Source: an uncultured delta proteobacterium
GTDB taxonomy: Bacteria > Myxococcota_A > Polyangia > Fen-1088
Length of the DNA: 64,000 bases
Direction of reading: 5' to 3'
NCBI GenBank assembly: GCA_963796685.1
Contig: CAWCMR010000025.1
Coordinates: 1,696,001-1,760,000, forward strand
Position 1 is the stretch's first letter. Each line of letters opens with the position of its first letter. The position numbers and the translations under genes were made by a program. The notes under the pieces are model-generated. The model did not search any database. It was not told the origin of the DNA and was given only the letters and a program-made list of their open reading frames with translations. Positions 10,522 to 32,820 of this stretch are shown piece by piece.

Positions 10522-10524
10522 AGC

Positions 10525-11880
10525 CTACCCGTCCAGTCGCTTGGGCTTCGCCGGAGTAGGCGTTTCCCCCTCGCCTTCCTCGCTCTCGGCTTCGACCTCG
10601 ATGGGCCGTCCAAGCTTGGCGGCCAGCTCCTCAGCCGTCAGCTTCGCGTCTTCGAGCTCCAGCTTGTAGTGCTGCGCGGGCGAGTAGTCCTCGTGCAGGT
10701 CAACCCGATCCATGACATCCACCAGCTCACGAAGAAACAGCCTCGGTGCGAGTGCCACCTTGCCACCGAAACCGGCGGTGACCTGCGACACCAAGGCCGC
10801 GAGAAATTGGTCATCCACGCGGGCGGCAACTCGGTCAGCATGCTTGGCGGGGTACAGATCGCGTACACGATGGGCAACTGTCAGCAGACGATCCTCGGTG
10901 AAGGGAAGGAGCCGAACTTGGGGCGCACGCAGATTGTCGAAGCGAGGATCCTCACTGAAGCTGACCTGAACCCGCTGGTGAAGCGCCCCAGAGCCCTTCA
11001 GACCTTTGTATCCCTCGAAGAAGTCCCTGGTGCCGGTGATGACCAGATAGAGCCCGGGCAACTGGTCGTTCGCCAACATGTCCATGAACTGCCGGAGGGC
11101 AAGGAGGGACTTTTCCCTGGTCTGAGAATTCATCCTCTGAATCGTCTCGACCTCGTCGAGCACAACGACCAGCCCCTTGTAGCTGGACTGGCGCAACAAC
11201 TGGAGCAGCCCCGCCAGGAATGTTAGCGAAGCCTGCCCGTCCACCTTCCCCTTGGTACCGGCTTCCTTCAGGACCGAACGGTCGGTATGGGGCTGGCCAG
11301 CCACCCACGCCAGCAGCCCTTGCGCTGTGGCAAAATCACCATCGTGCGTGGCGCGATGGTAGGCGCGCAGGACCTGGGCGAAGGCCGGATTCCGTCGCGA
11401 CAGATCCGCCAGCTTGTCCTCCAGCCGTTGCTCAGTCGCATCCGCGAACCCGGGATCTTCCTCCGTCATGCCCTTCAGGCGAATGACCTCGTCCCCAATT
11501 TGATACAGCCATCCGTCCACGACGGCCTGAAAGGCGTTGGGACCATCGGCAGCGGTCGCAAGGTGTTCTATCAGCCGCCGGTAGACGGTCTCAAGATGGT
11601 GCAGTGGAGTGTCGTTGATCGAGATCTGCACCTCGGAAGTGGCGAAGCCTCGCTGCCGCGCCTTCGCACACAGGTAGCGGGCGGCAAAGGTCTTGCCAGT
11701 CCCGTACTCGCCACGAATCCACTTGGAAACACCCTTGCCCGTGGCGACGAAGTCTAAGTCTTGGTTCACGGCATCCAGCAACGGATCCAGCCCTGTCGCG
11801 AAGTGCTCCAGGCCCTGCGCCGGCACTAGCCCGCTCCGTAGTGCGTTGATGATGGTCGGAGATTCAGGAAACACAGCCAT
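10525..11880 (-). CDS. brxD: BREX ATP-binding protein BrxD
   Basis: INALRSGLVP, IRGEYGTGKT (Walker A), ETVYRRL, LVVVLDEVE (Walker B), APRLFLRELV. Confidence 0.9.
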   Translation of the reverse strand: MAVFPESPTIINALRSGLVPAQGLEHFATGLDPLLDAVNQDLDFVATGKGVSKWIRGEYGTGKTFAARYLCAKARQRGFATSEVQISINDTPLHHLETVYRRLIEHLATAADGPNAFQAVVDGWLYQIGDEVIRLKGMTEEDPGFADATEQRLEDKLADLSRRNPAFAQVLRAYHRATHDGDFATAQGLLAWVAGQPHTDRSVLKEAGTKGKVDGQASLTFLAGLLQLLRQSSYKGLVVVLDEVETIQRMNSQTREKSLLALRQFMDMLANDQLPGLYLVITGTRDFFEGYKGLKGSGALHQRVQVSFSEDPRFDNLRAPQVRLLPFTEDRLLTVAHRVRDLYPAKHADRVAARVDDQFLAALVSQVTAGFGGKVALAPRLFLRELVDVMDRVDLHEDYSPAQHYKLELEDAKLTAEELAAKLGRPIEVEAESEEGEGETPTPAKPKRLDG

Positions 11881-14462: not shown

Positions 14463-17400
14463 TCGCTGTCCTCCTCCTGGATCAGCTTGAGGCTGATGCT
14501 TCCGCTACCCGCTTTCGACAGGGCTTTTCCAACCTCCTTCATGAAAGCAGAGACGGCGGTGGTATCGCCTGGATTCAGGCGGGCTTTGTACAGAACGACA
14601 CGCGCTGGCAGCGGCGGTGGCAAAGGCACTGGAATTGGCGTTGGCGTCGGCTGCTCGATCAGCTTCCTGGTCAGATCCTGCGCCTTGGTGTTCCAGGATT
14701 GGACCCAAACCGTCGTCAGCGGTTGATCTGTCTGCGCGCCAGCCATGCGGCTGGCAAGCGTTCCCAGGTGCTCGCGCACTTCTGCTCCAAAGGCGCCGTG
14801 CTGGGTCCCTGCGTTCAAGTTTGCGCGCGCGTGCTCATTGAGCTCGCCCACGGCGGCGAGGATCAAGTCCGCCTCGTGGACAATGGAGCGCAAAGGGTCA
14901 GCTGTGTTGTCGGGCCAAACCGAGAGCAGCTCGGTAAGCACCTTGTGGCTGTCCGAGGTGGGCTGGCCAAGCGCGGCCAGCCGCGCGTTTGCCTCTGATA
15001 GCTCTTTCAGGCGCTCTCCGGTATCCACGCCAAGCTTGACCAGCCGCTCGTGCAACCGCTGCAGCACCGTGCGCTTCGCCTGCCCTGACTCTTTCAGCTT
15101 GGCCGCAAAGCGGTCCTGGCCCTGCAGCGAACGATGGGCCATCGGGCGCTCCAGGTTGAAGAGTTGGTTTCCCAGGTCGCGCAACCGATGCCATTCCGCC
15201 GCACCCACCAATTTGCCCCGCTGCAAACGCAAGCGCGCAGTCGGGGCCATTCCGATGCGTACCTCAACGGCCTCTCCATCGATTTCCTGCAAGGCTCGGT
15301 GGTCACGCTGGCACAGGAAGCACAGGAACAGATCGGTCACCAACGGTTGGAAACCGAAGTCCTCGCGTAGGTGGTCCGCAATGGGCACCCAAGCCACCGA
15401 ATCCTGATCCGTCCGCTGAAGGACGTCCTTGATGTAGCGCGAATCCAGACGCAACATCGCCTTGGTCTGCCCTAGATTGACCAGTTCCAGCGGTTGGCCA
15501 AGTGTCCGCAGCACCTTGCCCGTGGCTTCGTCATACGCGACCGACACATTGGTCTCGCCCGCGTCGACCATCCACTTGAGCAAGGCTTCCAGATCCTGCT
15601 TCTTGGGCTCGGCCAGGAAGGTCGGGTGCTGCGGATAACGCCGGTCCATCAGCAGCGTCGCGATGTGCTCCAGGTTCTCGCTCAAGGTCTCGCGTGGGCG
15701 GCTGCTGTCCACGTCTGAGATCAGCGCGACGAACTCGCCGTGGTGAACGTAGACCTCTTTCAGCAATTCCTCTAGCTGTCCGACCAGCGTCCTTTCGCGA
15801 ATTCCGGCCTGTTCCAGAATCTTGCCGCGATCTTGTGGCCCCAGGGTTTCGAGCAGATCCTCTTGCCCGGGCGTGGACAGCAAATACCTCACCGCTGCGA
15901 GCTCGGTCAGAACGCCAAGCTCGGCCGGGGTCATGTGACGGGGCAGCCAGCACACCGTGTGCAGCAGGCCCTTGTTCTTTCGCACGTTGGCGGCCCGCAG
16001 ACGATCTTCGTCGACCGTATGGCCTGGTTCGTCCCAGGGGTAGTCGATCAAGACCCTGAACGCGCCATCCGGTGGCACGAAATCGTCGTAGGACAGCTCG
16101 CGAATGTTGCCCAGCTTGATGCGGCCACGGCGCTTGGTGCCCCGCCAGGTCAGATCCCAGTCACCCTCGTTCACACCGCCCTCCTCGAAACCGCGACTGT
16201 TCTCAAGCTCCAGAGCCTGCTTCAGCGCCTTCCAGAAAATCTCGAACTGCTTGGCTACGCTGCCCTCGACCTTGGAACGCGCGCGCACGAGAACTGCACC
16301 TAGGCTTACTCGTCCAAGAACGTAGCGAACGATCGCGGTCTTGCCCTGCCCAGCCACCTGCAGGTCGGGAACAAGCTGGGAAAGTGCCAGTAGATCCGTC
16401 TCGGCCACGCGCACGCGACTACGGAAGGTCTCACCCTCTACGTCCACTGAGTTGAGCTGGACCAAGCGCTCGATGGTCAGTCCGCCCTGCTTCAAGCGCG
16501 GCGACACCTCGGCCAACAGCACCGTCTTCACGAGCTGATCCAGCGCACGCTGGCGTTCGGCATTGAACTCGGTCGCGCGCTCCTCGGCGATCTTCTGCAT
16601 GGCCGGCGCAAGGCGCGAATAGTACTGGTGGTGAACGTCCTGCATCACCTCCACCTTCTTGCTCGCCTCGACCCCGGATTCGGGGAAGATGGCGGCAAAG
16701 GCCGAGCCCACGGGCAGAAACTCGCCCAGCGGCAGATTCGGATAGTGCAGAACCAGCAATTCGTAGAGTAGGCGAAGCGCCGAGCGCTCGCGCTGCATGA
16801 GCGAGGTGACATCCACGAGCATTTCGATCAGGGCCGGGTGGAATGGATACACGTCACGCAGGTACTCGATGTCCCCGCCGGCCAGGAGCGCTGGGAGCAC
16901 CTTCTCGTGCCGCTTGGAAAGCGAGGCCACCGCCTCTGCCACTGCGGCCGCATCTTTGGGCCGTAGCACGCGCCCCTTCACGATGTGGCGCAACTCCACG
17001 TCCTGCAGCTTGGTCACCTCGAAGCGTTTCGAGTGATGGTCGAGGTGCTCGTGGATCTTGCTCTCGTCCACCAGATCCGGAAAAAACTCCTGCAAGTTCC
17101 GCTGGCGCGCGACGAAGGCGAAGATGGGCACCGTGCGCTGCCCGGTGTTGTGGTCGACGATGACGTTCAGGTTGTTGATCTCCTGCACGAACTCCTGCCC
17201 CGACTTTTCAGCCAGCCACAGCAAGAACTCGTCGATCATCAGCACGATGCCGCCAAAGCCCTGGGCCTTGGCGTGGGCTGCCATCCGCTTCAAACCCTCG
17301 CTCCAGTGTGGGTCGATACCCGCGTCCGCGGCGTCGCGCCCCTTGTACTTCAGCCATTCCCGGGCCAGCCGCTCGCGCTTCTGCGCCGAGCCGGTCGCCA

Positions 17401-17998
17401 GGGCCTCGAAGTCTTCCCGACTGCCCACCACGCCCGCGGCGGTCAGCCGCTTCCAGACGATGTCGCCGTACTCCTTCGACTCCCGCCGAACCTCATCGAA
17501 GATGGCCTCCACATTCAGGAACTCGAACTGCGCCTTGCCCCGGCGTTTCAGGGCGGCGTTGAACGCCTCGTAGATAGCCCGATCAAGGCCCGTGTTCTTC
17601 CCGCGCACGGACAGCATGTGGATGCGCACCACCAACAGCCCGGCCTTGCCCAGCCACGTTTCATGGTCGGCAGATTTGAAAAGCGGCCGAAACTTCTTCC
17701 ACGCCGGATCCGCTCCCTCTAGCAGCATGGAAAGCATGGTCAGGAAGTGCGACTTACCGCTGCCGAAGCTGCCGTGGATGAAACGCCCGTACTCCTCGCC
17801 TCGGTCGAAAACCTGTCTCATGTCTTCGAGGATGCGTGGCAGCTCGCTTTCAATGGCAGGCGTGATGACGTAGTCATCCACCAGTTGCCTGACCTCGTCC
17901 GAGCCAGGCTCGGCCTCGCGCAGCTTGACCACGAAGCCCATGGCCCGGATGTCCTGCGGCTTCGGCAGATCAAAGACGTCGGTGATGGTGGTGGTCAT
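14459..17998 (-). CDS. pglY: BREX type 2 ATPase PglY
   Basis: FIHGSFGSGKSHF (Walker A), VLMIDEF (Walker B), YPFHPALI, ERSALRLL, LIDYPWDEPGH. 1179 aa. Confidence 0.9.
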   Translation of the reverse strand: MTTTITDVFDLPKPQDIRAMGFVVKLREAEPGSDEVRQLVDDYVITPAIESELPRILEDMRQVFDRGEEYGRFIHGSFGSGKSHFLTMLSMLLEGADPAWKKFRPLFKSADHETWLGKAGLLVVRIHMLSVRGKNTGLDRAIYEAFNAALKRRGKAQFEFLNVEAIFDEVRRESKEYGDIVWKRLTAAGVVGSREDFEALATGSAQKRERLAREWLKYKGRDAADAGIDPHWSEGLKRMAAHAKAQGFGGIVLMIDEFLLWLAEKSGQEFVQEINNLNVIVDHNTGQRTVPIFAFVARQRNLQEFFPDLVDESKIHEHLDHHSKRFEVTKLQDVELRHIVKGRVLRPKDAAAVAEAVASLSKRHEKVLPALLAGGDIEYLRDVYPFHPALIEMLVDVTSLMQRERSALRLLYELLVLHYPNLPLGEFLPVGSAFAAIFPESGVEASKKVEVMQDVHHQYYSRLAPAMQKIAEERATEFNAERQRALDQLVKTVLLAEVSPRLKQGGLTIERLVQLNSVDVEGETFRSRVRVAETDLLALSQLVPDLQVAGQGKTAIVRYVLGRVSLGAVLVRARSKVEGSVAKQFEIFWKALKQALELENSRGFEEGGVNEGDWDLTWRGTKRRGRIKLGNIRELSYDDFVPPDGAFRVLIDYPWDEPGHTVDEDRLRAANVRKNKGLLHTVCWLPRHMTPAELGVLTELAAVRYLLSTPGQEDLLETLGPQDRGKILEQAGIRERTLVGQLEELLKEVYVHHGEFVALISDVDSSRPRETLSENLEHIATLLMDRRYPQHPTFLAEPKKQDLEALLKWMVDAGETNVSVAYDEATGKVLRTLGQPLELVNLGQTKAMLRLDSRYIKDVLQRTDQDSVAWVPIADHLREDFGFQPLVTDLFLCFLCQRDHRALQEIDGEAVEVRIGMAPTARLRLQRGKLVGAAEWHRLRDLGNQLFNLERPMAHRSLQGQDRFAAKLKESGQAKRTVLQRLHERLVKLGVDTGERLKELSEANARLAALGQPTSDSHKVLTELLSVWPDNTADPLRSIVHEADLILAAVGELNEHARANLNAGTQHGAFGAEVREHLGTLASRMAGAQTDQPLTTVWVQSWNTKAQDLTRKLIEQPTPTPIPVPLPPPLPARVVLYKARLNPGDTTAVSAFMKEVGKALSKAGSGSISLKLIQEEDSE

Positions 17999-18681
17999 TG
18001 CGCCTCTCCCAGGGCTTCCAGTTTCGCGATCCAGGCATCAAAGCGGGGACATTTCGCGCGTAGTGCCGCCAGGCCCAAAGCCTCGATCACCGAAGGCCCC
18101 ATGGTGACCTTGCGATAGCCCGGGACATGTTCCAACAGCCGCTTGGATGGTGCGGTTTCGTTGCCATCATTGACGTCCTCTGGGGAAAAATCCCCAAGCG
18201 AACGTTGGAGCGCCTCGACTCCCTCCCGGTCCACTTGTCCCGGCAGAAGGGCCGGCAGCTTGTCCAGGCCGGCCAGCACCAACGCCTCGAACTCGTGGCG
18301 TTGCAGGTAGGGAAGAAATCGATAATCGTCGATCTCTTTGGCCATGGCGAGCTCCAGCAGCCCCGCACGAACTGTTGTGTCCTGCTGCACCTCGCAACTG
18401 GACAGCTCCGGAAAATCTTCGGGCAACCCATACAGGTCGAACAGGGTTGTGATTCGAACGTCGCTGCCTGGGTTGGACTTGGACAAATTTGCAATGTCTT
18501 TGCGCCAATGCTTCCAGTGTCCGCCGCCACGGCCTAGCTTCTGGCCGGTCTTCCTATCGCGCTTCGTGGTCACTTCGATTGGCGTTGTCCATACATTCCT
18601 AGCGTCCAGGTGCGGTGCCAGCGTCGCCTTGGCGAAGGCTATCTCGGTGTCGCCCTCGACTACGACGAACAGCCGCCTCAC
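17995..18681 (-). CDS. DUF4276 family protein (TOPRIM-like)
   Basis: VVVEGDTE, TTLFDLYGLP, HEFEALVL, PEDVNDG.ETAPSKR, CPRFDAW. GTG start overlaps the ATPase stop (GTGA). Confidence 0.85.
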   Translation of the reverse strand: MRRLFVVVEGDTEIAFAKATLAPHLDARNVWTTPIEVTTKRDRKTGQKLGRGGGHWKHWRKDIANLSKSNPGSDVRITTLFDLYGLPEDFPELSSCEVQQDTTVRAGLLELAMAKEIDDYRFLPYLQRHEFEALVLAGLDKLPALLPGQVDREGVEALQRSLGDFSPEDVNDGNETAPSKRLLEHVPGYRKVTMGPSVIEALGLAALRAKCPRFDAWIAKLEALGEAQ

Positions 18682-19811
18682 GGCCGCCCCCCAAGGACGT
18701 TCTTCTCGTAGAGCTGGGAGAGGCTGTAGTCCTCGAGCCACGCGGTCAGCGCAGCAGGATCTAGCCGCTTGAAGGAAGTCTCGCCCCGGCTGCGTTCGGT
18801 GACGACCACCTCGTCAGGCTCGAACTCGTCCAGCAGGGCTGGTGACTGCGTCGTGATCAGTACCTGGCAGCGAGTCGACACCGAGTGTACGAGCGACGCG
18901 AAGATGCCGATCGCCGCTGGATGCAGTCCCAACTCGGGCTCGTCGATGACGACGAGCCCGGGCAGGCTAGTCGAGGGTTGCGCCAGGGCAGCGATCAGCG
19001 CGATGGCACGCAGGGTCCCGTCCGAGAGGTCGTGGGTATCGAAACGATGGTCTCTTTCATCGGTCCAGTACAAGCGCACTGCAGATGTCTCGGGATGGTC
19101 GGGATCTACTAAATCGGGATCCAGGGTCTTGATGAACGGTGCAATTCGCTGAATGAGAGCGCTGATGAGGTTCCACGACTGGGTCGTTCCCTCCGCATCA
19201 CTGCCCTTGAGGCGATAGAGAAACGCCGCCAGGTTGGCACCGTCTGAATGAAGAGCGCGGTTGTCGACCTGGCGCCAGTTCTGTCGCAGCGGCGCGGTCG
19301 GCGATGTGTCGGGAAAGTGGAAGAAGCCGATGCCACTGACCAGACGGCCAAGAATTCGCAGTTGATTCTCGCCGCCCGGACGGTCGGCATCGGCAAGAAT
19401 AGATTCCCTCAGCCCGGCGCTGCCTAGAAATGTGTCCAGATGTTGGTCGGACAGACGCTCGGCCGCCACGTACTCATCCCGAAAGGAGAGGACGTCGCCT
19501 GCCGCGTACCCAAGCCGGCCCGTGTAGCTGAAGCGATTCTCGCTCGATATGAATTCCAACCCGATGCTCAGCTCCTGGGTAATTTGAGCCCCGTAGTGCA
19601 GAAGCGCTGAAGCTCCGCCCTGATCACCAACGAATCGCGCCAAGGACCCGGCGCGCATCAACGGTACCAACCGGAGGGCGGAGAGTAGGTTGGACTTCCC
19701 TGATCCGTTGGGCCCGATGAGCACCGTCACTGGCCCAAGATCCAGGGTGACATCGCGCAATGAGCGAAAGCCCGCCACGTGAATTTTGTTGAGCTTGGCT
19801 TCAGTCATCAT
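18678..19811 (-). CDS. ABC-type AAA_21/AAA_15 ATPase
   Basis: GFRSL, GPNGSGKSN, LSDGT signature, VVIDEPELGLHP, ITTQS. Confidence 0.9.
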   Translation of the reverse strand: MMTEAKLNKIHVAGFRSLRDVTLDLGPVTVLIGPNGSGKSNLLSALRLVPLMRAGSLARFVGDQGGASALLHYGAQITQELSIGLEFISSENRFSYTGRLGYAAGDVLSFRDEYVAAERLSDQHLDTFLGSAGLRESILADADRPGGENQLRILGRLVSGIGFFHFPDTSPTAPLRQNWRQVDNRALHSDGANLAAFLYRLKGSDAEGTTQSWNLISALIQRIAPFIKTLDPDLVDPDHPETSAVRLYWTDERDHRFDTHDLSDGTLRAIALIAALAQPSTSLPGLVVIDEPELGLHPAAIGIFASLVHSVSTRCQVLITTQSPALLDEFEPDEVVVTERSRGETSFKRLDPAALTAWLEDYSLSQLYEKNVLGGRP

Positions 19812-22800
19812 TCGTCGTTCTCCTCGTTCTCGAGGTCTTTCTCACGGGCCTTGGCGGCGCGCTTGGCCTTGCTGGCGCGCGTGCTGGGTGGTGGGAAGCG
19901 TTTGCGCCAGTCTTCGATCAGCTCGGGGCTGGGGCCTTGGGGGCCGACCAGGGCTTGTAGCTCGGCCTTGAGGCGCGCGGCTGCTGCGGGATCTTCGCGG
20001 AACACGTCGGGCAGCAGGCGCCAGGCGCTGTCGAGAAGGCCGATGCGATCGGCCAGCGGCACGTCGGCGTCTTCCAGGTTCTCGTCGATGGCCAGGATGG
20101 CGCGCAAGCGTTGCACCGGGGTCCAACCGGCCCAGCCGTAGAGGGTTTCGACGCCGGAGCGGCCGGGGACTTCGGTGAAGGCGATGAAACGTTCTTTGGG
20201 AACGTCGAGCTTGCCGCGGAGTTGCCAGTATTCCGTTTTGAGGAAGTCGCCTGAGCCGTAGCTCGGTGGCACCTCGGGCGTGACCTTTTCGCCGGCATCC
20301 TCGCGTCGCTGGTCCTCCCAGGTGCGCTCCCAGGCGTCTCGCTTCACAAGGCCGGCGGGCTTGTAGACGTGGAAGCGGTGATTCGGCACCATATCGCCGA
20401 ACAACGCCTCGGCCACGAGCTGCGACAGATTGAAGTCGCGCCGCCCGGCTAACAATTCGCTGACGGCCAGGACATGCGGATCGTCCTGCAACGAGGCCAC
20501 AGTCTGATCGAGCGAAAACACGCCTTGCCGATCCTTGGCGGCGGCCTCGACTCGGTCGGCAAGCCAAGTCTGCATGGCCTCTTTCTCTTCTGCCTCGTAG
20601 TCCGGGCAATACCAACGCCGCTTGAAGCTTGGGTTTTCGATAAGGGCAAGAGCAGGAACAGTGCGAATCCGCTGGCGGCGCACCTCAATGCGGGCACGAA
20701 GCTCGTGTGGCACTTCAGGTGGAAGCTCGGTCAAAGGTTGCCAACGATGACGTTCGAACCAGACAGTCGGCAGTGCTCCAGGATTCCGTTCTTGCGCTAG
20801 TTCGGCGCGAGTATCAGCATCTCGGGCGGCGAAGCTCAGGCACCACGGAAGCCAGTTTGGCGAGACCGGCTCCACCTTATCGGGTGAAACGATAGTAGGG
20901 GTGTCATCAAAGCCATAGAGGCTGTAGACCAACCAGTCGAGTTCTTCCTGGAGACCGACCATGTTCAGTAGACAGCGAAAATCAGATTCTCGTCTGCGAT
21001 TAAGCAACAGCCGGAGATCGGACTGGCTCACCCAAGTTGGCTCAGAGAGCGTCCCAACAACGCTCGCAGCAGCTCGTTCGCGCGCGAGTTTGTCGATTGC
21101 AACAGCGTACTCGCGAGTGGAATTCGCCCCAGCCGGCACGGGCATGGCCGCCAACTTCGTGGAGTCTCGAACATAGCGCTCCATCCATGGCTCAGGTTCA
21201 AGCCCGCGCCCGACGCCACCGGCAGCCTTCGGTTGGAACACCTGCTTCATCCAAAATTCGGCTGAAGAGGAATTCAAGATGCCCAGAACTGCAAGGTATG
21301 AACTTTCGTCAGCTTCCGGCGGAAGCTTGATTACAGGCGCCTCGCTGTTGAAAAGATGCCGTCCTCGAACAAGCGCAAAATGATTGTGCGTTGAGACCCT
21401 TGGACTCGCGAGCTGGATTCCCTGCTGAACTAGGCTTTTCGTAAACTGCATATATTCAAACCACTCAAGACCGGCATCCGCCATAACCCCCTGAAACGTC
21501 GCCCGGTTCGCGAGAGAAGTGCGAAATCTCCACAGGCTTCTGAAGTCGCCCGACCATTCCTCCTTTGAAAGAGAAGCATCAACTCCGCCGTCGGATAGCA
21601 TGTAGGGGAACCATGCCCGCTCGGATGACATAGACGACCAGTCCCGGATGTGTCTTCCGCGAAAGTGGGCCAGGCAGTGACTAGGGTCGAATGAACGCCG
21701 AAGCACCTCGAGTTCATCGTGGCAAACGAAGACATTCTCGAGCGCTATCCGCACCCCACGCCCAATTGGCGACTCGACAGTACTAGACAGAGAATTTGCC
21801 GATGCTACTTCCATGCGCCGCTTCGTTTCGCCGGTTGTTCCACCGACAATGCTCCACGGATACCGTCGAAGTCGCAATCTATCCACGTCCTCAACGCTCA
21901 CGTACTCATTCTCGAATCCGACTTGAGTGTAGCCATAGAGAATGCTCTTCCACACCTCCCCCTGGGACGGATCTGCGAGTTTCACTAGCTCCCCCCGTTT
22001 GCTCATCACGATTCGCACGTACTTGTTTGTCGGGGGCTGGCTCCTGACGAAGAGGAGTACCGTCGCAGTTCCGTGGTGTGGTATTTGAGCCTGCGACGAA
22101 TCGACCACCAATGACAGGTCAACATTGGCGAGAACCTTCTCAATGAATGGCCGACCGTAGTCACTGCGCATAAACTGGTTATCAACTATTAGACCAACAT
22201 GACCGCCAGATACTGCACATTGGAAAGCGCGTTCAGCGAAAGGGCAACTCAAGTGATACTGTTTATGGGCAGATATATATCGCTGTTTCGAGCCCACCTT
22301 CTCCTTTTGATAGGCCTTGCGGCGAGCATCGCTCTCCACAATATACGGCGGATTCGCAACCACGGCGTGGAACTTCTTCGCAAACACCTTTCGCAATGCC
22401 GTCCGCACATCCGCTCGCGTGAGAGTGGCGCGCGGACGTTCTTCGGTCTTCTCGAAAAGGTCCGTCTGCAACGGCTGCTTGACCTCGTCGCGTTCGACCT
22501 GCTCCAGCCCGTCGGCCCAGTACACATGCGGATGGAACCGCGCCGCCTCAGCCAGAGCGCCCTTGCCGGCCAGCTCTGCGGCGGTCATCACCAACCGCGC
22601 ACGCGCCAGTCCGCAGGCGTAGTCGTTCAGATCAATGCCCACCACGCGGTCGAGGGCATGGTTGACAACAGCCTCGCGCTCCCAGTCTGGGTGCTTCGCG
22701 GCGGTGGCGGCAACGAGGCGCTTCAGTCCGTCGATCAGGAAGTGCCCTGAGCCGCAGGCCGGATCCAGCAGTCGAACGTCGTCGGCACCGAAGGTTTCGA

Positions 22801-23425
22801 TGGCGGGTGTCAGCGTGCGATCCAGGATGAACCCGCGCACGAAGTCGGGCGTCTGGCACAGAGCAAAGCGATCCTTCACCACCGGATCCAGCTCTTGGTA
22901 CAAATCGCCCATCAGCTCGCCTTCGAAGTGCTCGTCGGCAAAGCTCCAGGTAGCGCCCGTGTCCGCGTCGCGCTCGCGCCAGAAGCGAATCAAGGCGCGC
23001 GACAGCTCGTCCGAGGGCAGAGCGACCTCAGCGGGCTGCGGGCTGAACAGCTCGGGTAGGCCACCCTTTACGCTGGCCAGGTCGCGGTACACCCAACGCA
23101 GGAAGGCGGTCTCGCCCAGGTGTGGGGCCAGGCGCTCGAAAAGCTGCTGCGCCTCGGGATCCAGCAGGCGCCCAGGCGAGAGCAGTCCGCGATCTTCCAG
23201 CACGCGCAGGTAGACCGACTTCAGCACCCACAGCACGGCGGCCCGGCGCGAAAGTAGATCGGTCCAGACGTCGAAATCCTCGGCCACCTGCTCGTCGGCG
23301 TGAAGCCGCTGTGCCCGCTCGCGCGTGGGCCCGGGCGCGCGCATCTTGCCGCGCAGGTCAGCCGCGATCTTGGCGACTTGATCGCGCAGGGCTGAGGTCA
23401 GTCGGGCTCGCTCGGTCGGCTTCAT
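19808..23425 (-). CDS. pglX: BREX type 2 adenine-specific DNA methyltransferase PglX
   Basis: QTPDFV, LLDPACGSGHFL (motif I), VVANPPY (motif IV), LQEELDWLVY, RGKLDVPKERFI, YGWAGW. Confidence 0.93.
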   Translation of the reverse strand: MKPTERARLTSALRDQVAKIAADLRGKMRAPGPTRERAQRLHADEQVAEDFDVWTDLLSRRAAVLWVLKSVYLRVLEDRGLLSPGRLLDPEAQQLFERLAPHLGETAFLRWVYRDLASVKGGLPELFSPQPAEVALPSDELSRALIRFWRERDADTGATWSFADEHFEGELMGDLYQELDPVVKDRFALCQTPDFVRGFILDRTLTPAIETFGADDVRLLDPACGSGHFLIDGLKRLVAATAAKHPDWEREAVVNHALDRVVGIDLNDYACGLARARLVMTAAELAGKGALAEAARFHPHVYWADGLEQVERDEVKQPLQTDLFEKTEERPRATLTRADVRTALRKVFAKKFHAVVANPPYIVESDARRKAYQKEKVGSKQRYISAHKQYHLSCPFAERAFQCAVSGGHVGLIVDNQFMRSDYGRPFIEKVLANVDLSLVVDSSQAQIPHHGTATVLLFVRSQPPTNKYVRIVMSKRGELVKLADPSQGEVWKSILYGYTQVGFENEYVSVEDVDRLRLRRYPWSIVGGTTGETKRRMEVASANSLSSTVESPIGRGVRIALENVFVCHDELEVLRRSFDPSHCLAHFRGRHIRDWSSMSSERAWFPYMLSDGGVDASLSKEEWSGDFRSLWRFRTSLANRATFQGVMADAGLEWFEYMQFTKSLVQQGIQLASPRVSTHNHFALVRGRHLFNSEAPVIKLPPEADESSYLAVLGILNSSSAEFWMKQVFQPKAAGGVGRGLEPEPWMERYVRDSTKLAAMPVPAGANSTREYAVAIDKLARERAAASVVGTLSEPTWVSQSDLRLLLNRRRESDFRCLLNMVGLQEELDWLVYSLYGFDDTPTIVSPDKVEPVSPNWLPWCLSFAARDADTRAELAQERNPGALPTVWFERHRWQPLTELPPEVPHELRARIEVRRQRIRTVPALALIENPSFKRRWYCPDYEAEEKEAMQTWLADRVEAAAKDRQGVFSLDQTVASLQDDPHVLAVSELLAGRRDFNLSQLVAEALFGDMVPNHRFHVYKPAGLVKRDAWERTWEDQRREDAGEKVTPEVPPSYGSGDFLKTEYWQLRGKLDVPKERFIAFTEVPGRSGVETLYGWAGWTPVQRLRAILAIDENLEDADVPLADRIGLLDSAWRLLPDVFREDPAAAARLKAELQALVGPQGPSPELIEDWRKRFPPPSTRASKAKRAAKAREKDLENEENDE

Positions 23426-25293
23426 GGTTCTTTCTTCGCTGTGCGATAGGCTTGAAAGGGATGCTGCGGGTTGTCCGGATGGCGTCGCTCCAGCTCGCCG
23501 CGCTCGATCAGCGGGCGCAGATACATGGTACGGACGGTGCTCTCACGCCGGCCGATGGCCTCGGCAATTTCTGGCAATGTGCGCCAAGCCCCGGTGCAGA
23601 ATTGCAGGACTGCGCCAAGCTGCTCCTGCATGGGCTTCCAGCCACGTCTTTCCTCGGAGCTTTCCTCGGAGGTTTCCTCGGAGGTTTCCTCGGAGCCTGG
23701 CGAACTTTCCTCGGAGCTTTGCTCGGAGCTGGCCCCACTTTGCCCGGAGCTTTGCCCGATGGTTTGCCCGGAGCTTTCCTCGATGCCGGGCAGACGGACT
23801 TGGGCCGGGACCAGCAGGGTATAGGTCTTGCTTCGTGACGGCCCCGAGGACGCGAGCAGCTTCTTGCGCAGCAGCTCCTGCAACTTCAGTGTGACGTCGC
23901 GCGTGTGGGCGTCGGTCAAGGTGGCCAAGCGGGCGTGGGTAATCCCGCCTTCGGCATGGGCAGTCACCAGGGCCAGGCGGCCCAGCTCGTTTTGGGCGTC
24001 GAACTGCGGCCCCAGAAGCTGCTGCAGCGCCACGATGGACGCCTCGGGCAGCAGGCTGAGCTGGCGCAGGCGTAGATGGGCCTCGGAATGCTCGACGTCT
24101 TCGGTCAGCGCTGGGGGCTGCCAGTGCTGGTGGGCCCATGCCTGCCGGATAGCCGGACCGCCCGATCCCTCGTGCTCGCCAAGCTGAATCAAGCCAAAGA
24201 GGTGCTGCAAGACGGGGTTGCGACATTCGCTGATGCCGCCCTTCCACACCTGTTGCGGGGAGACGAGCAGCAGGCCCGGGTTGATGAACTCGTACCCCGA
24301 AAGGTCGCGGAGAGCGCGAACGCCCGACCGCCCCTCGTAGTCGGCGTGGATGATGGTGTTCACCAGTGCCTCGCGCACTGCCTTGTGGGCAGGGGTCTCG
24401 TCGCGCCGGAACTGCCCTGCTTCAAGTGCGAACGGAACCTTCAGGCCCTGGTAAAGCTTGCTGATGACCCTGCTGTAGAACTGGAAGGCATTGGCGTTCC
24501 ACGTGCCGTCGCAGGCGATGCGGTCCACCCAGCGCTCCCCGCTCGACGGATCCGGCGGAAGCTCGCGGTAACTCAGGTGCCAGTGCGGAAAGCGCTCGCG
24601 CAGTGCCTGCTCGCGTCCGAGCATCAACAGGCCACCAAGGGTCAGGCCATCGACGTCGTTAACACGGTCGCGGGCGATCACGCCGGATTGGCGAAGAAAG
24701 CCTGCGTCGTCCTCGCTGACGAAGGGGTGATCGGGCCGCTTGGCGGCGAAGACGTTCCGGTAGGCGCGCACACTGTCCGGATCGAGGTCGGCGTCGCCAT
24801 AGCCCTCCAGCACCGAGCCGTCTCGTTCCGGCAGAGCGTCCGCCATCATCCGTCGCGCGACATCGCGATCAGCCAAGCGGTCGCCCTCGTGCACTCGCAG
24901 ATAGGTTCCGCGCTCCCACGATCCGTTGAGAAAGACCGGGCGCTGGCCGCGTGGGGCTTTGGGGACTCGGACCACGAGCAAGAGGTGCCCATCGACTGGT
25001 TCGCGAGTCACGCCCTGGCGCACAAGGATGTTGGCGCTGACCTTCTGCGGGTTCTGCAGGCAATTCCAAAGATCGCGTTCGACCTTGTCGATGTCGGGAA
25101 TGCCACGAAGATCGAACGATCCGTCGGCGCGCTCTTTGGCACCAAGGACGATCATCCCGCCTTCGGTGTTCGCCATGGCGCTGTAGGTTTCCCAGAACGA
25201 TTCCGGCAACTCGCCCTGCCCGTCCCGGCCAAGGGCAAGCTTGGCCTCGAAGTCCCAGCCTTCGCGCAAGACCTCGAATTCGTCGCGGGTCAT
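23422..25293 (-). CDS. Schlafen/AlbA_2 + HATPase_c_4 (RecG C-terminal-like) + wHTH protein
   Basis: LREGWDFEAK, ETYSAMANTEGGMIVLG (AlbA_2), AVREALVNTIIHADY, INPG, CRNPVL, GEHEGSG, C-terminal HTH. Confidence 0.85.
   Translation of the reverse strand: MTRDEFEVLREGWDFEAKLALGRDGQGELPESFWETYSAMANTEGGMIVLGAKERADGSFDLRGIPDIDKVERDLWNCLQNPQKVSANILVRQGVTREPVDGHLLLVVRVPKAPRGQRPVFLNGSWERGTYLRVHEGDRLADRDVARRMMADALPERDGSVLEGYGDADLDPDSVRAYRNVFAAKRPDHPFVSEDDAGFLRQSGVIARDRVNDVDGLTLGGLLMLGREQALRERFPHWHLSYRELPPDPSSGERWVDRIACDGTWNANAFQFYSRVISKLYQGLKVPFALEAGQFRRDETPAHKAVREALVNTIIHADYEGRSGVRALRDLSGYEFINPGLLLVSPQQVWKGGISECRNPVLQHLFGLIQLGEHEGSGGPAIRQAWAHQHWQPPALTEDVEHSEAHLRLRQLSLLPEASIVALQQLLGPQFDAQNELGRLALVTAHAEGGITHARLATLTDAHTRDVTLKLQELLRKKLLASSGPSRSKTYTLLVPAQVRLPGIEESSGQTIGQSSGQSGASSEQSSEESSPGSEETSEETSEESSEERRGWKPMQEQLGAVLQFCTGAWRTLPEIAEAIGRRESTVRTMYLRPLIERGELERRHPDNPQHPFQAYRTAKKEP
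23648..23782. repeat. Degenerate 12-bp tandem repeat encoding SSEE/TSEE/SSGQ tetrapeptides
   Basis: GGAGCTTTCCTC / GGAGGTTTCCTC / GGAGCTTTGCCC units in the linker of the AlbA_2 gene. Confidence 0.8.
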
Positions 25294-28200
25294 GCGCCCT
25301 GGCCTCCCACGCGCTTGGCATCAATGCAAAGCGGGTTGGCAAGGGGCAGCGTGGCGCCATCCAGGTGCCACATGGGTGAGCCTTCGTTGAATAGCGGCTG
25401 CTGTTTGTGGATCACGCCGGGAACAACCAGGATCCAGAAGCCATGGCTGCCAGATAAGGTTTCGTCGTAGAGCCGCCGCGGCAAATCGAGGGCGTCGCAA
25501 AGGGCAAACAGCGCTGTGTCGCCAACAACAATGGTCTTGCCCACGCCGCCGTGTTCCTCCAGCAGACGGAAGAGCGTGGCCTCGGCGGCCTCGGTCAAGG
25601 CGTCTCGCTGGGCAACGAATTTCTCTGCCCGTTCGAGTGAAAGCATGTCGGCGGCATGATCGGAGAAGAAGGCGTCTTCGAACGAGACCCAGGTGCCGCC
25701 GAGGCAGGCGGCGACCGAGCGACCGATCTCGGGATGGCGCTCGGGCGGCGTGACGAGCATGCGAAACCCACGCGTACCGGCAGCGTCGCGCAGCATGTCC
25801 CGAACTGCATCCTCGGGGCTGCGTTCGCTGCGGAAGGTGGACGGCAACTCGTCAGGGGCGAGTGCTGGTGTGGCGATGATCGATCCGGTTCGTCCGGGCA
25901 GGACGGTATCGCCCTGCACGCGACATTCGAGCTCGCGAAGGATCTCGAGCAGGTGGTCAGGCGCGGGATAGGGGGTGTCTTCGCCAAAAGCGCGACGGAC
26001 ACGACGCTCTAGCTCGTCCAGCGACATGGGGTCGCGCGCCAGCTCGAGTACAAACCCGATGCTCTGCTTGGGTTCAAGGGGCCCAACGAAAAGGTGGCCT
26101 GACTCAGTAGTCAGGACGTCGTCACAAAGGCGCACCCCCAGCGCGAGAGCGTCACCTTCAAAATGCGGCAAGAGTGCGGCGAGGGTCTTGCGGGCGGTCT
26201 CGGGTTCGACGGGGGGCCACTGGCTGGCCAGGCGTACGGTCTCGGCGGCGAAGTCATAGAGGGTCTTTCGATCGTAAATCGGACGCGCCACCAGGGGCTG
26301 GTCTGCGCCATCCACCTCGATCAGATGAGCCCGGCCCGAGGAGGTACGGACCAGAAGACGAACGATGCCGGAGCCGGTCACGACCGCCGCCGGCCACTCT
26401 TCTTCGAAGCGCGCGCCGATGTCGTCCAGACGAGCGATGCCACTGAACCCGTCGAGCACGTTGTCGAGGGCCTGCATCAGGTCGGCCAGCGCGCCCTGGT
26501 CGAACCGTTCGAGGCCGATGGAAAGGTCGATGCTGATCTGGGACTGGCTCTTGTGAAGATCCTCGGCGATCTCGCCCTGCTGCTCAGGTTCTCCCGTGAT
26601 GCCGATGGTGCGCTCGACCGCGATTCGCTGACCATCGCTCAGCGGACGAGATGCAAGCTCCCAAATTCGATCGAGCGTGTAGGCGCCTTCGGCGGATTCC
26701 GGGCTGTGCGACTGAAAACGATGAAGTGCCTCCACGACCTGGGCCAGTCGGGTCCGACCGATTCCATCGACTTCGAGCAGCTCGTCGCGTGACAGGGCGG
26801 CCACGGCACCGACGGTCGGAAGATCGGCGGCGACCAATGCCGCCCTTAGCGTGGCGGGAAGGGGCAGCTTCTCGACGGGCTCGGGGCAGTCGACGAGATC
26901 GGGCATGAGGGAAGTCTCGATCGGCTGCCCGGGCACCGGCGCAGTCGGGGCAACGCCCTGAGCGCGCATGGACTCTTGGAATCTGATGATATCGGAGGCT
27001 GTCTTGCTGCCGATGGCGTGAATCGTCCGAATCTGGGTCGGCTGCAAGGCCAGAAGCTGGCCAACCGTGTGTACGTGGCTGCGAACGAGCGCGTTGATTG
27101 CCCTTCGAGAGAGTCCGGCGGTTCGAAGAGAGGCCGTGGGCTCAAGGCGCGGCGGTGGCTGGCCAGAGGACGCTGCAGCGGAGTCATCTCCGAGAGCGAC
27201 CAGCAGTGCGTCTCGCATCGAGCGTGCAGAGGGGAAGCGTTTTTCGGGAACGGGATCGAGCGCCTTGCGAAAGAAGGAGGCAAGGCCGGACGGCGAGATA
27301 TCGTCCTCGCGAACGGAGGGTGCCTGGCCCGGTTCGGGCACGTGCCCATCAAAGGCGTGTCGTCCGGCGTAGAGCTCGAACAGGCAAAGCGCGGCGGCGA
27401 AACGGTCCGTAGCGTGCGTCCACATGGCGCTGGCCGGGTCGCGGTACAGGGCTGTCCCGCCGTAGGGCGCATCCACGGGAATTCCCGCCAGGCTGAAGTC
27501 GATGATGGTGAGGCGGCCGTCGCTGACCAGCAGGTTGTCAGGCTTGAGATCTTTGTGCGTGACCGCCTTCTGTTCGAGGTAATCCAGGCCCGCCAGCAAA
27601 TCCTCGGCGAGCCGTCGTTGGGCGGTTGGTTCTGGTGTCGGGTGCTTTGCCAACCACTCGCGCAAGCTCTCGTCACCCACGCGCTCCATCACCAAGGTCA
27701 AGCGACCTTCGACCATCTTGGTCAGGTCGATCACCCGCACGATGTTGGGGTGGTCTAACGATGAGAGGGCGTGGTACTCGCCCTGCAGTGCCTCTTCGGC
27801 GGCATTTTCTGAACGGGCGATCTTGAGTGCGCGGGTGCGTCCGCTGAGCAGGTGGCGAGCGGCGTAGACCACCGCCATCCCACCCTGGCCAAGGCGGCCC
27901 GTGATCTCGTAGTCGGTGCCGACGAGCGTGCGGGGCTGAAGATTGTCGGCGTCGAGCGGCACGCGCCTGTCTGGGGGAATTCCCGGAAGCGCGGGCGACT
28001 CGGGCTCACGCGCCAGGCGAACGGCGGTGATGGCCTCCGGCAGCGACGAGAAGCGGTCGGTCGGCCGCAATTCGAGCATGCGCGCGACGGCCTCATCGAG
28101 TCGCAACGGAACCCGCGGGGCCACGTCGCGAACCCTCCGCATGAGCCGGCGCGCGGCCATCAACTGCCGGGTGCTGTCGAAGAGCGGCTTGCCCGTCAGC

Positions 28201-29402
28201 AAGAAGGCCAAGATGACGCCCAGGCTGAACTGGTCGGAGGCCGGCTCGGCGCTGCTGAACGCCGTCACCACCTCAGGTGCCGAGAAAATCAGCCGGTCAT
28301 CGGCGATGGTCGTCAGCGAAATGGTGGTGTCGACGGCGAGCTGTTTGGCGAGATCGAAGCCCGTCACGCGGATCTGCTCCGGATCGGGCTTGTCCTCGAC
28401 AAGGAGCACCTCCGGCCGCAGCAGCCGATGCACGACACCCTGACGGTGGGCCTCGTCCAGCGTCTGGGCAATGCGCATCCAGAGATCGGTGCGCGTCCGC
28501 AGATCCGCCTTCGACTTGCCACGCGCATCGGAGCCATAACGCTCGATCCACGTCGTGAGCGTGATGCCTTTGAAGTACTCGAAGGGCAGGACGATGCCTG
28601 CTTCGTCCGAGAAGGGCTGGTCGGCCTTGCGGATGCCCTCGCTGCGGCCCAAGCGTCCGAGCACCTGCGCTTCCCAGCGTGCGCGCTCTTCGATGCGCGC
28701 CCTTTGCGCATCCGTCGCAAGCTGAGGCACGCTGTAGATGCGCAGGATGCGTTCGGCTGATGAAAGTGTGTTGCGCCCGAGTAGCTCGGTGTAGGTGTCG
28801 TGGTGGCTCAGGGTTTCGACGATCTCGTATTCGCGCACGCGCCGTACGGGCTTGGTTCCCGCGGGCACACCGGTCAGAACGCGCAGAAGGTCCTGTTCGG
28901 CGGCGGAAGTCGGGGCAAGCGAGGTCCGGCTGCTGAGCCTCTCTACAAGAGCACGATCCTGCAGAGCGGTGAGGATTGTCTTCCTGGTGTGAATTCGGTC
29001 CTTGCTGGCCGGACCGCGGACGCCAACGTCGTTCGTGGCCGATAGGAAGACGAGTCCCTCGACCCAGAGCTGACCGGCCCGGAAGCTTTCGCGCTTGAGC
29101 TGGCTCTTCAGGACCTGCGCGGTCACGCGATTCAACCGGAGCGGACTGGGAACAGGGTGCGGTACGTACCAGTCGTGGTCGGTGCCCTCGATCCTCCCAC
29201 GGTAGGACTTGATCTCGACGACGAATACGGCGTGCGGTGCAACGACCACGGCATCCAGCTCGTAAATGACGCCCGTGCGTTCGACAAGCCAGGTGTTGCC
29301 GTAGACGGTGTAGTCGGACGAGAGCCCTTCGACGAGGTAGCGCAGTGCCTGCCTCTCGGCATCGTGCGCGGATTCGCCGACCGGGATGAAGTTCGCGGGC
29401 AT
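25290..29402 (-). CDS. pglW: BREX type 2 PglW: NERD nuclease + pseudokinase + Ser/Thr kinase + RNAP alpha-CTD-like repeats
   Basis: Start MPANFIP at 29402. NERD YELDAVVV..FVVEIKSY. Kinase 1 is degenerate (HRLLRPE, VTGFDLA); kinase 2 has LGQGGMAVVY, RALKI, HKDLKPDN, DFSLA. Also AGLSRRAINAL and EVDGIGRTRL. Confidence 0.9.
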   Translation of the reverse strand: MPANFIPVGESAHDAERQALRYLVEGLSSDYTVYGNTWLVERTGVIYELDAVVVAPHAVFVVEIKSYRGRIEGTDHDWYVPHPVPSPLRLNRVTAQVLKSQLKRESFRAGQLWVEGLVFLSATNDVGVRGPASKDRIHTRKTILTALQDRALVERLSSRTSLAPTSAAEQDLLRVLTGVPAGTKPVRRVREYEIVETLSHHDTYTELLGRNTLSSAERILRIYSVPQLATDAQRARIEERARWEAQVLGRLGRSEGIRKADQPFSDEAGIVLPFEYFKGITLTTWIERYGSDARGKSKADLRTRTDLWMRIAQTLDEAHRQGVVHRLLRPEVLLVEDKPDPEQIRVTGFDLAKQLAVDTTISLTTIADDRLIFSAPEVVTAFSSAEPASDQFSLGVILAFLLTGKPLFDSTRQLMAARRLMRRVRDVAPRVPLRLDEAVARMLELRPTDRFSSLPEAITAVRLAREPESPALPGIPPDRRVPLDADNLQPRTLVGTDYEITGRLGQGGMAVVYAARHLLSGRTRALKIARSENAAEEALQGEYHALSSLDHPNIVRVIDLTKMVEGRLTLVMERVGDESLREWLAKHPTPEPTAQRRLAEDLLAGLDYLEQKAVTHKDLKPDNLLVSDGRLTIIDFSLAGIPVDAPYGGTALYRDPASAMWTHATDRFAAALCLFELYAGRHAFDGHVPEPGQAPSVREDDISPSGLASFFRKALDPVPEKRFPSARSMRDALLVALGDDSAAASSGQPPPRLEPTASLRTAGLSRRAINALVRSHVHTVGQLLALQPTQIRTIHAIGSKTASDIIRFQESMRAQGVAPTAPVPGQPIETSLMPDLVDCPEPVEKLPLPATLRAALVAADLPTVGAVAALSRDELLEVDGIGRTRLAQVVEALHRFQSHSPESAEGAYTLDRIWELASRPLSDGQRIAVERTIGITGEPEQQGEIAEDLHKSQSQISIDLSIGLERFDQGALADLMQALDNVLDGFSGIARLDDIGARFEEEWPAAVVTGSGIVRLLVRTSSGRAHLIEVDGADQPLVARPIYDRKTLYDFAAETVRLASQWPPVEPETARKTLAALLPHFEGDALALGVRLCDDVLTTESGHLFVGPLEPKQSIGFVLELARDPMSLDELERRVRRAFGEDTPYPAPDHLLEILRELECRVQGDTVLPGRTGSIIATPALAPDELPSTFRSERSPEDAVRDMLRDAAGTRGFRMLVTPPERHPEIGRSVAACLGGTWVSFEDAFFSDHAADMLSLERAEKFVAQRDALTEAAEATLFRLLEEHGGVGKTIVVGDTALFALCDALDLPRRLYDETLSGSHGFWILVVPGVIHKQQPLFNEGSPMWHLDGATLPLANPLCIDAKRVGGQGA

Positions 29403-29404
29403 CG

Positions 29405-30154
29405 TTACACCAGCAGAACCTTCGCCGTGGGGAACCAGATGGCCAGCTGGTCCTGGACACGGTACGTGCCGCCCTTGTCCGGGTGGACCCCGATCACGAA
29501 ATCGAAGCTGCGCTGACGAAGCGGATGGTTCTGGTCGCGAAGACCGTCGGGCTGGATGCGGGTGATGAAGTCGGGATGGGGCGCGCCGAGGTCGAGAGCA
29601 ATCACGCCAGCAAGGGTCAGTTCTTGCCACGTGCCGCAGGCGATGGCGAAGTTGTCCTGCAGGGTAAGGTCGCGCTGGCTCGACACCAGATGGTGTGCGA
29701 GCTGGCCGCCGGTGCCGGGAAGCTCAAGCACCCTCTGGTGGGCCTTGACCACGTGCAAGTCCGAGCGGGCGAGCTTGGTTGAAACGCCCAGCAGCCGGGA
29801 CTGTTCGCCCACGTAGTCCGGTCCCGCGGTCTTGAGATCGAGGGACGCAAGGGCACCAAGCCAGTCGTTGGCCAGCCCGTCAGAAAGTCGATTGAGCTCT
29901 AGGTGGTCGTCGACGACCGCGGCGTCGAATGGGATCCGATGAAGCACGGCCGCGTCTTCGAACAGCAGCTCGATGAGGTCAGCGGCCGATAGACGGCCAC
30001 GGAAACGGGACCACGTGGCAAGGTCGGGCTCGGTAAGCCGCGGGGGCCGCCGACCGGCGGCTTCGTCGCGGGCGAGGGAGTGCAGCAGTACTGCCGTCCA
30101 GGTGCCGGTAGGAAGCTGGTGCGACTCAAGGCGAGAAATGTCGAGCCCTGCCAT
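29405..30154 (-). CDS. Uncharacterised first gene of the BREX operon; degenerate class I methyltransferase-like fold
   Basis: Ends 2 bp before pglW. RVLELPGTGGQLAHHL resembles SAM motif I and SFDFVIG resembles strand 4. No NPPY-type motif. Confidence 0.7.
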   Translation of the reverse strand: MAGLDISRLESHQLPTGTWTAVLLHSLARDEAAGRRPPRLTEPDLATWSRFRGRLSAADLIELLFEDAAVLHRIPFDAAVVDDHLELNRLSDGLANDWLGALASLDLKTAGPDYVGEQSRLLGVSTKLARSDLHVVKAHQRVLELPGTGGQLAHHLVSSQRDLTLQDNFAIACGTWQELTLAGVIALDLGAPHPDFITRIQPDGLRDQNHPLRQRSFDFVIGVHPDKGGTYRVQDQLAIWFPTAKVLLV

Positions 30155-30364
30155 CAGAGAGCCTCGCTTGCCATGCTGCCGGCCCGCGTCTGCGGATCGT
30201 CAGGGATGAATCTGTTCAATGATAATGAGGGGTTACGCATGGTCCAGCTCGGGAGGCTGTCGAGTCATCGCCACAGCAGGTCAAAGGACTCGGCGCCCAA
30301 CGACGGTACCACGTGCGACCTACGGGCAGAAGGGCCACCCGAAGGGCTGTGCCGCATCGCCGGC

Positions 30365-32720: not shown

Positions 32721-32820
32721 TACGGATTCGCGTCTCGAATCCAAACCGAGGGTAGTTTCCAGGCAACTCTTTCTGCGCACAACCGATAGTTTGGCACGAG
32801 CCGCTGTGCGACCATCAACA

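Follow-up and report, generated by a model that had tools for sequence, protein, structure and literature searches.

A leader gene coupled to pglW that opens a BREX type 2 operon

Among the major types of bacteriophage exclusion (BREX), type 2 is understood least, in particular in the way PglW senses infection and communicates with the PglX methylase. The analyzed window, a 64,000-nucleotide stretch of DNA from an uncultured delta proteobacterium (assembly GCA_963796685.1, contig CAWCMR010000025.1, positions 1,696,001 to 1,760,000), carries a BREX type 2 operon whose first cistron is a 249-amino-acid (aa) gene (P0001), hereafter called the leader. The leader starts with ATG and occupies 29405..30154 on the minus strand, with its TAA stop codon (29405-29407) included in these coordinates. 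A spacer of only 2 bp (29403-29404) separates this stop codon from the ATG of pglW (29400-29402), and the whole coupling junction lies at 29400..29407 (minus strand).

The first-pass annotation of this DNA had described a 249-aa first gene that ends 2 bp before pglW and is written in the codon style of the core genes. Both the coordinates and the junction sequence agreed with this description, and the GC content at third codon positions was 0.78 in the leader, 0.77 in pglW, and 0.67-0.80 in the other operon genes. A consensus scan placed a sigma-70-like promoter match (TGGACC-16-TATCAT; 30219..30246, minus strand) some 65 nt ahead of the leader's ATG; the scan returned 3 sites against 0.2 expected, as pattern matches only. 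In addition, a 600-nt contig from a soil metatranscriptome (run X4), approximately 97% identical to the window, covers 28900-29440 and extends across the leader-pglW junction by 36 nt into the leader, which does not in itself prove transcription or a single transcript.

The pglW gene (25290..29402, minus strand) encodes a 1370-aa protein with a NERD nuclease, a pseudokinase, a kinase, and a C-terminal DNA-binding/sensor half, as assigned with Pfam and PADLOC. The Pfam matches were NERD, Pkinase (two kinase-like regions), and RNA_pol_A_CTD, and the PADLOC match was PDLC02512 (E = 2.5e-125). The rest of the operon (8407..25293, minus strand; Pfam and PADLOC) comprises a Schlafen/AlbA_2 ATPase-like gene, pglX, a HEC-01 A/B pair, pglY/brxC, pglZ, brxD, and brxHI, with PADLOC E values of 3.3e-286 for PglX, 7.6e-145 for BrxC, 2.1e-67 for PglZ, 1.2e-160 for BrxD, and 3.4e-262 for BrxHI. 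Since PglW, PglX, PglY/BrxC, PglZ, BrxD, and BrxHI are all present, the BREX type 2 operon is complete, and two accessory modules have been inserted into it.

The leader frame is a genuine gene and not a chance reading frame, because it has 707 homologs (E ≤ 1e-3) in a collection of 5.8 billion proteins and a low ratio of nonsynonymous to synonymous substitutions (dN/dS). Pairwise Nei-Gojobori values of 0.11-0.21, obtained against five orthologs of equal length, indicate that the leader evolves under purifying selection. The best 120 of the 707 homologs were 246-254 aa long and 65-100% identical to the leader; they carried no Pfam domain, and the sole name given to them was "hypothetical protein." An exhaustive HMMER pass over 1.84 billion representatives yielded 139 clusters, of which 32 were found at E ≤ 1e-30. 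The leader itself gave 0 matches to the Pfam, PADLOC, and NCBIfam models.

The leader directly precedes pglW in most loci

Linkage was scanned in 45 loci, one genome per species, with pglW placed by tblastn. Most of these loci were labeled Myxococcota; the others belonged to Ca. Schekmanbacteria, to metagenome-assembled genomes (MAGs) of Anaerolineales, Lamprocystis, and Rhodanobacteraceae (one each), and to a few MAGs with doubtful labels. In 33 of the 45 loci, pglW started no more than 8 nt past the last leader codon. The start lay 41-190 nt after the leader in three loci and about 800-940 nt after it, behind an intervening gene, in another three. One locus (L019) retained only a C-terminal PglW remnant after the leader, and five had no PglW after it: one contig ended inside the leader, three held leader fragments only, and the fifth was L032, which is considered below. 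The spacer between stop and start, measured in 35 loci, was 2 bp in 19, 3 bp in 11, 1 bp in one, and 5 bp in one; the remaining three spacers were 38, 64, and 187 bp.

A sample of 401 genomes from the phylum of the window was also examined, 30 of which were matched by the leader profile. Full-length PglW, defined as a match that extends from the NERD domain to beyond the kinase, was found in 31 genomes, with two candidates scored per genome only, so that some PglW genes may be missed. The raw tally of 376 of 401 genomes consists largely of ordinary kinases and was left aside. The leader was located directly upstream of full-length PglW in 24 of these 31 genomes (22 by coordinates, and G067 and G110 by a local HMM/BLAST search). 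It was on a different contig from PglW in one genome (G294), and in two others the contig ended within 650 nt upstream of pglW. In general, the leader directly precedes pglW near-invariantly, and homologs mostly unlinked to BREX, which were to count against the first-pass proposal, were not what the scans returned.

The identity of the leader across 23 related loci followed that of PglW (Spearman 0.90) slightly more closely than that of PglX (Spearman 0.80), both values being descriptive only. One locus (L001) combined a leader of 83% identity and a PglW of 92% with a PglX of only 56%, again as a description of a single case; here, PglX appears from the sequences to have been exchanged while the leader stayed with PglW. 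A tblastn search of plasmids with PglW returned two weak partial kinase matches (Azospirillum and Bacillus) and no BREX-2 locus.

Three further loci (L055, L056, and L058, in G084, G282, and G019) encode NERD-kinase proteins whose match to the PglW model is confined to its first half. All three have the same kind of gene in front of them, about 485 aa long and unrelated to the leader, and they possibly belong to a different NERD-kinase system.

The predicted fold resembles the front half of PglX

The leader was modeled with AlphaFold2 on an alignment of 59 diverse family members (down to 21% identity), which gave a predicted local distance difference test (pLDDT) score of 95.5 and a predicted template modeling score of 0.93. 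A model built from 40 close relatives reached a pLDDT of 52.7 and was unusable, so the diverse alignment alone succeeded. The predicted structure begins with a helical bundle at residues 1-122 (29789..30154, minus strand; model helices 11-32, 43-51, 57-71, 92-104, and 111-122). It continues with a Rossmann-like methylase domain at residues 123-249 (29408..29788, minus strand), assigned from the model and its class I methylase matches, with five strands (142-144, 169-173, 197-199, 219-222, and 245-248). The protein ends at strand 5. Because the fold stops there, the strand 6-7 hairpin of a seven-stranded sheet is absent from the predicted model, as is a substrate domain.

The model superposed on class I methylases only, both with Foldseek and with VIA-align. 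In the Foldseek search of the Protein Data Bank (PDB), the top eight rows were type I HsdM or PacII methylases, and nearly all other rows were class I methylases. The VIA-align scan of 48,161 chains, which is independent of Foldseek, placed the Salmonella BREX PglX (8c45_A) at the top, with Z 13.6 and a root mean square deviation of 4.0 over 243 residues, model residues 1-249 being laid onto chain residues 8-558. MmeI followed (Z 13.3), then PacII and several HsdM proteins (Z 11.9-12.8), with BpuSI, DrdV, LlaBIII, and BsaXI in lower rows. Adenine methylases of type I, IIG, IIL, ISP, or BREX made up fourteen of the 15 best rows, and their alignments ran the full length of the model. Dozens of small generic methylases scored Z 8-10 and aligned to residues 110-249 only, against Z 10.6-13.6 for the DNA adenine methylases. 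The published account of Salmonella PglX places its helical bundle at residues 1-227, its GxG motif at 315-317, and its NPPY motif at 509-512 (PMC11341690). Therefore, the aligned range takes in the bundle and most of the way through the methylase core, ending shortly past motif IV/V.

According to the model, the leader would consist of the helical bundle and of strands 1-5 of a gamma-class N6-adenine methylase, and would thus mirror the N-terminal half of PglX, MmeI, and HsdM, the helical part included. An N-terminal helical domain followed by a methylase core in the order X-I-II-III-IV-V was found in the structural alignments and in the sequence reading against PglX. The first-pass annotation had proposed a methyltransferase-like gene with a helical N terminus and a Rossmann-like pattern, to be checked with AlphaFold and Foldseek. 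The high-scoring model and its best matches (PglX, MmeI, and HsdM) bear this out, and a non-Rossmann fold was not found. The description had overlooked the truncation after strand 5 and the likeness to these three proteins over the whole length.

Foldseek against viral models returned giant-virus adenine methylases at E ≥ 5e-3 and nothing more specific, and the protein-language look-alikes from Atlas were all methylases, with scores of 0.86-0.87 that fall below 0.9 and serve as a lead only. A profile search of PDB sequences gave nothing beyond a DinJ antitoxin at E 0.3-0.4. This DinJ/RelB-type likeness of residues 53-100 (L-x-x-x-D-L-x-x-L-x-x-E-D-A-A-V-x-x-P-x-P-F-D) was rejected as probably due to chance.

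Motif I is conserved and the catalytic positions have been replaced

The motifs of the leader were aligned by eye with those of PglX from the same operon. Motif I (VLELPGTGG, residues 142-150; 29705..29731, minus strand), which corresponds to LLDPACGSG in PglX, is the best-conserved stretch of the family: E144, L145, P146, G147, and G150 each reach 90% conservation or more in the set of 59 diverse members. The complete set of positions conserved at this level (R29, E31, W48, L55, D67, A69, L122, E144-G147, G150, and G183) falls in the helical bundle and motif I. Motifs II, III, and IV contained no position conserved across the same 59 members. In the motif X region, the leader has GVSTKLARSDL and PglX has CQTPDFVRGFI.

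At the end of strand 2 (motif II), the leader reads FAIAC (169-173) where PglX reads VVGID, and the acidic residue is lost; the cysteine in its place, C173, occurs in every one of the 40 close members. The degenerate motif IV region, FDFVIGVHPDKGG, covers residues 217-229 (29468..29506, minus strand), and FDFVIGVHPD (V223-H-P-D226) stands there against FHAVVANPPY of PglX. The 40 close members have L/V-H-P-D/E at the NPPY position, and HPDKGG is invariant or nearly so among them; this loop is not conserved in the distant members of the diverse set. Strand 5 is AKVLLV, after which the leader ends at residue 249 while PglX continues. Neither a target-recognition domain in the leader nor an HsdS-like gene in the operon was found. 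The strings quoted in the first-pass annotation, RVLELPGTGGQLAHHL (141-156), NFAIAC (168-173), ITRIQPD (197-203), and SFDFVIGVHP (216-225), are all present, and its statement that the motif II acid and NPPY are lacking was correct.

The leader was not filed as a methyltransferase because it lacks NPPY, the motif II acid, a target-recognition domain, and any profile match, and because it has only five strands. It probably descends from gamma-class adenine methylases and is a shortened, in all probability inactive, copy of the front half of the methylase of this very system; we infer that it does not methylate. In the opposite direction, an active enzyme that works on protein, RNA, or a small molecule, with the H-P-D-K loop replacing NPPY, would agree with the near-invariance of HPDKGG at the catalytic-loop position in close members and with the intact motif I, but we consider it highly improbable given that the loop is unconserved in the wider family, the motif II acid is absent, the model ends after strand 5, and no methylase profile scored above threshold.

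A proposed accessory subunit of PglW

Taken together, the leader is proposed to be a non-catalytic, truncated relative of PglX, MmeI, and HsdM that serves as a stoichiometric accessory subunit docked on PglW, where it would have a regulating or bridging role. We give this reading about an even chance of being correct. Leader and PglW would be made in step by termination-reinitiation at their junction, and the leader would sit on PglW beside the N-terminal NERD domain. From this seat, it may regulate PglW as a sensor/effector, or it may link PglW to the PglX methylation machinery through the PglX-like surface that it would present.

The seat near the NERD domain is suggested by a fusion in G125 (L046:1238-6064, minus strand) that has no linker. 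Here, a clean open reading frame (ORF) of 1608 aa joins the last strand of the leader directly to the PglW N terminus at the start of the NERD domain, with the joint reading ...AKVFI-KVGEPAHDAERQ... Other candidate fusions were rejected: a search of longer proteins gave three matches, of which P0260 and P0261 were frameshift artifacts and P0262 shared only 28% of the query. Prediction of a complex between the leader and PglW residues 1-745 scored 0.00; having been run without controls, it weighs neither way.

Several observations weigh against the proposed role. The G125 fusion is known from one draft genome of 300 contigs. In four of the 31 genomes with full-length PglW (G363, G025, G196, and G106), even an enlarged profile detected no leader in the roughly 2.4 kb upstream of pglW; therefore, either PglW can dispense with the leader or an undetectably diverged form exists. 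The ORFs upstream of these four PglW genes matched no Pfam family, the best signal being HTH_32 at E 0.004, below the cut-off. Nine loci (L042:1168-1953, plus strand; L041, L043, L063-L067, and L069) have a second conserved gene of about 260 aa, P0265, between a divergent leader and pglW, the loci with gaps of about 800-940 nt being of this kind, so direct coupling of the two is not obligatory. P0265 belongs to no Pfam family (only YfcL at E 0.093), has no similarity to the leader, and defines a variant with two leader genes. In L032 (10822-13132, plus strand), the leader is intact, and behind it come 17 codons that look like a PglW start, then GmrSD_N (DUF262), AAA_15/DUF3696, and the contig end. 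The same GmrSD_N and AAA arrangement recurs in L071 (G294), and these genes may be an accessory module inserted between leader and pglW.

The fold assignment has its own difficulties. All Foldseek E values exceeded 1e-3, although the top-row probability was 0.99-1.00. In VIA-align, half-helical models can score Z of about 13 by arrangement alone; since the scores obtained here lie near this caution zone, the assignment rests on the consistent family of matches and not on the score. Among the 59 family members, Pfam N6_Mtase matched one (E 0.003) and MmeI_Mtase one (E 0.031), and when the family profile was compared by hhalign with residues 150-500 of the operon's PglX, the probability was 0.4%. 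Sequence methods thus leave the methylase relationship unconfirmed. The conservation of motif I would fit ligand binding as well as a structural role, and both the contact of the leader with PglW and its regulatory or bridging effect are put forward here as inferred.

With these points in view, the first-pass expectation that homologs always precede pglW stands as a strong tendency, carried by the 33 of 45 loci within 8 nt and the 24 of 31 genomes with direct adjacency, and fails as a rule in the four leader-less genomes and the nine loci with an extra gene. Its suggestion of a seventh core component needs the same correction. The leader is a component of part of BREX-2 and is not universal; within that part, it is likely an undescribed seventh component.

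Alternative functions of the leader

A first alternative places the leader with PglX, as an inactive partner subunit that aids binding of DNA or S-adenosylmethionine (SAM) or gates activity, its place before pglW being a matter of operon order. The best structural match is indeed PglX over the whole length, the identities of leader and PglX are correlated, and type 1 PglX alone does not methylate and needs larger complexes (PMC11341690). In the examined loci, however, the leader never adjoins pglX, and pglW always lies between them. In addition, the leader of L001 keeps pace with PglW while PglX falls away, and the partner in the G125 fusion is PglW and not PglX. On this balance, partnership with PglX is unlikely.

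A second alternative makes the leader a sensor of SAM or a nucleotide, in which the glycine-rich loop would bind the cofactor. If SAM were lost, as phage SAM lyases might bring about, the hold on PglW would change and its kinase or nuclease would be triggered. This agrees with the fold, which is that of SAM-binding enzymes, and with the position of the most conserved stretch of the 59 members in motif I (E144-G150). Closer members also conserve T126, which resembles motif X, and the P-x-K-G-G loop that follows strand 4. Against it, the ribose-binding acid has become Cys, the Asn of NPPY has become V/L, motif III has no conserved residue, and the predicted cleft is built without strands 6-7. 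Sensing of this kind is therefore distinctly unlikely in our judgment.

Elements of sensing and decoy could be combined in a bait integrated on PglW, which would capture anti-methylase phage proteins or report SAM loss and then switch the kinase and NERD nuclease to an abortive response. If true, such a bait would be a guard-type layer built into BREX-2; we find it very doubtful.

The plain decoy, also raised in guard form, would mimic the N-terminal half of PglX and capture anti-BREX phage proteins of the Ocr kind, whereupon PglW would start an abortive response. A PglX-like shape without catalysis is what such a bait would offer, and the tight coupling to PglW would suit it. To our knowledge, no phage inhibitor of BREX-2 has been reported. 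Because the identity between the sequences of the leader and the operon's PglX is undetectable, mimicry of the surface is unproven, and the strong conservation of the family (dN/dS 0.11-0.21) is unlike that of fast-evolving bait surfaces. Two published points lend the idea some plausibility: Ocr binds PglX directly (PMC11341690), and the main text of PMC12839542 interprets PglW as a hub for sensing that is equipped with suicide effectors. Even so, a decoy role appears very improbable.

The proposed accessory subunit on PglW is the reading that we favor. A coupled pseudo-methylase resembling the N-terminal half of PglX would provide a concrete handle on the link between PglW and PglX. The clade that has the leader is mostly Myxococcota, with scattered members elsewhere. 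Since the leader is absent from PADLOC, from NCBIfam, and from the main text of PMC12839542, the annotation of BREX-2 is incomplete for this sizeable clade.

Accessory and neighboring genes

The Schlafen-type gene between pglW and pglX (23422-25293, minus strand; 623 aa) has AlbA_2, HATPase_c_4, and Fic-like_C matches, and the same insertion occurs in L001 and L002 (81-84% identity). Schlafen-kinase-wHTH genes are common BREX add-ons according to the main text of PMC12839542. The HEC-01 A/B pair between pglX and pglY (17995-19811, minus strand) consists of an AAA_21 ATPase and a DUF4276 protein (PADLOC E values of 1e-109 and 5.8e-68); it was also found in L022 and, in part, in L002.

Downstream of brxHI are three ORFs of 275, 602, and 564 aa (5497-8132 and 3567-5261, both minus strand) that belong to no Pfam family; the ORFs of 275 and 602 aa adjoin each other at 7305 and may be part of the defense island. 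Upstream of the operon are a divergent ORF of 435 aa (30995-32302, plus strand) and an ORF of 282 aa (32334-33182, minus strand), neither of which has a Pfam or NCBIfam family.

Relation to known systems

The closest comparison is with PglX/BrxX itself (Salmonella PglX, PDB 8C45), which shares the helical bundle and the gamma-class core order X-I-II-III-IV-V with the leader and is found in the same defense system. PglX has about 1200 aa against 249 aa in the leader, which is without the target-recognition domain, the spacer helices, the C-terminal domain, NPPY, and the motif II acid. The type I HsdM proteins and the type IIG/IIL enzymes (MmeI, BpuSI, DrdV, and PacII) have the same two-part layout and align over residues 1-249 with Z 10.6-13.3. 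In contrast to them, the leader has neither the catalytic nor the SAM-ribose motifs, its sheet is truncated, and its family is linked to no HsdS/HsdR gene or nuclease domain.

Inactive methylase paralogs are known as partner subunits, for example METTL14 and DNMT3L, which pair with an active paralog of the same family. The leader shares with them, as a concept, a degenerate methylase fold kept for binding or scaffolding, whereas its genomic partner is a NERD-kinase protein.

Compared with the canonical six-gene BREX type 2/Pgl system, the locus holds all six genes plus an extra conserved first gene and the Schlafen-type and HEC-01 insertions. According to the main text of the 2026 comparative survey of BREX (PMC12839542), type 2 adds PglW, BrxHI, and BrxD to the BREX core; no gene upstream is named there, although the supplementary neighborhoods may include one; for Streptomyces Pgl, the part of PMC4365076 considered describes the pglWX and pglYZ operons only. 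Among the titles and abstracts listed on BREX with an inactive methyltransferase and on BREX in myxococcal bacteria, none dealt with a leader-like protein. The first-pass placement of the gene outside the canonical six-gene set agrees with these accounts and with the lack of a PADLOC model. The clade described here, in which BREX-2 has a PglX-like pseudo-methylase gene as its seventh, coupled to pglW, represents a new version of a known system.

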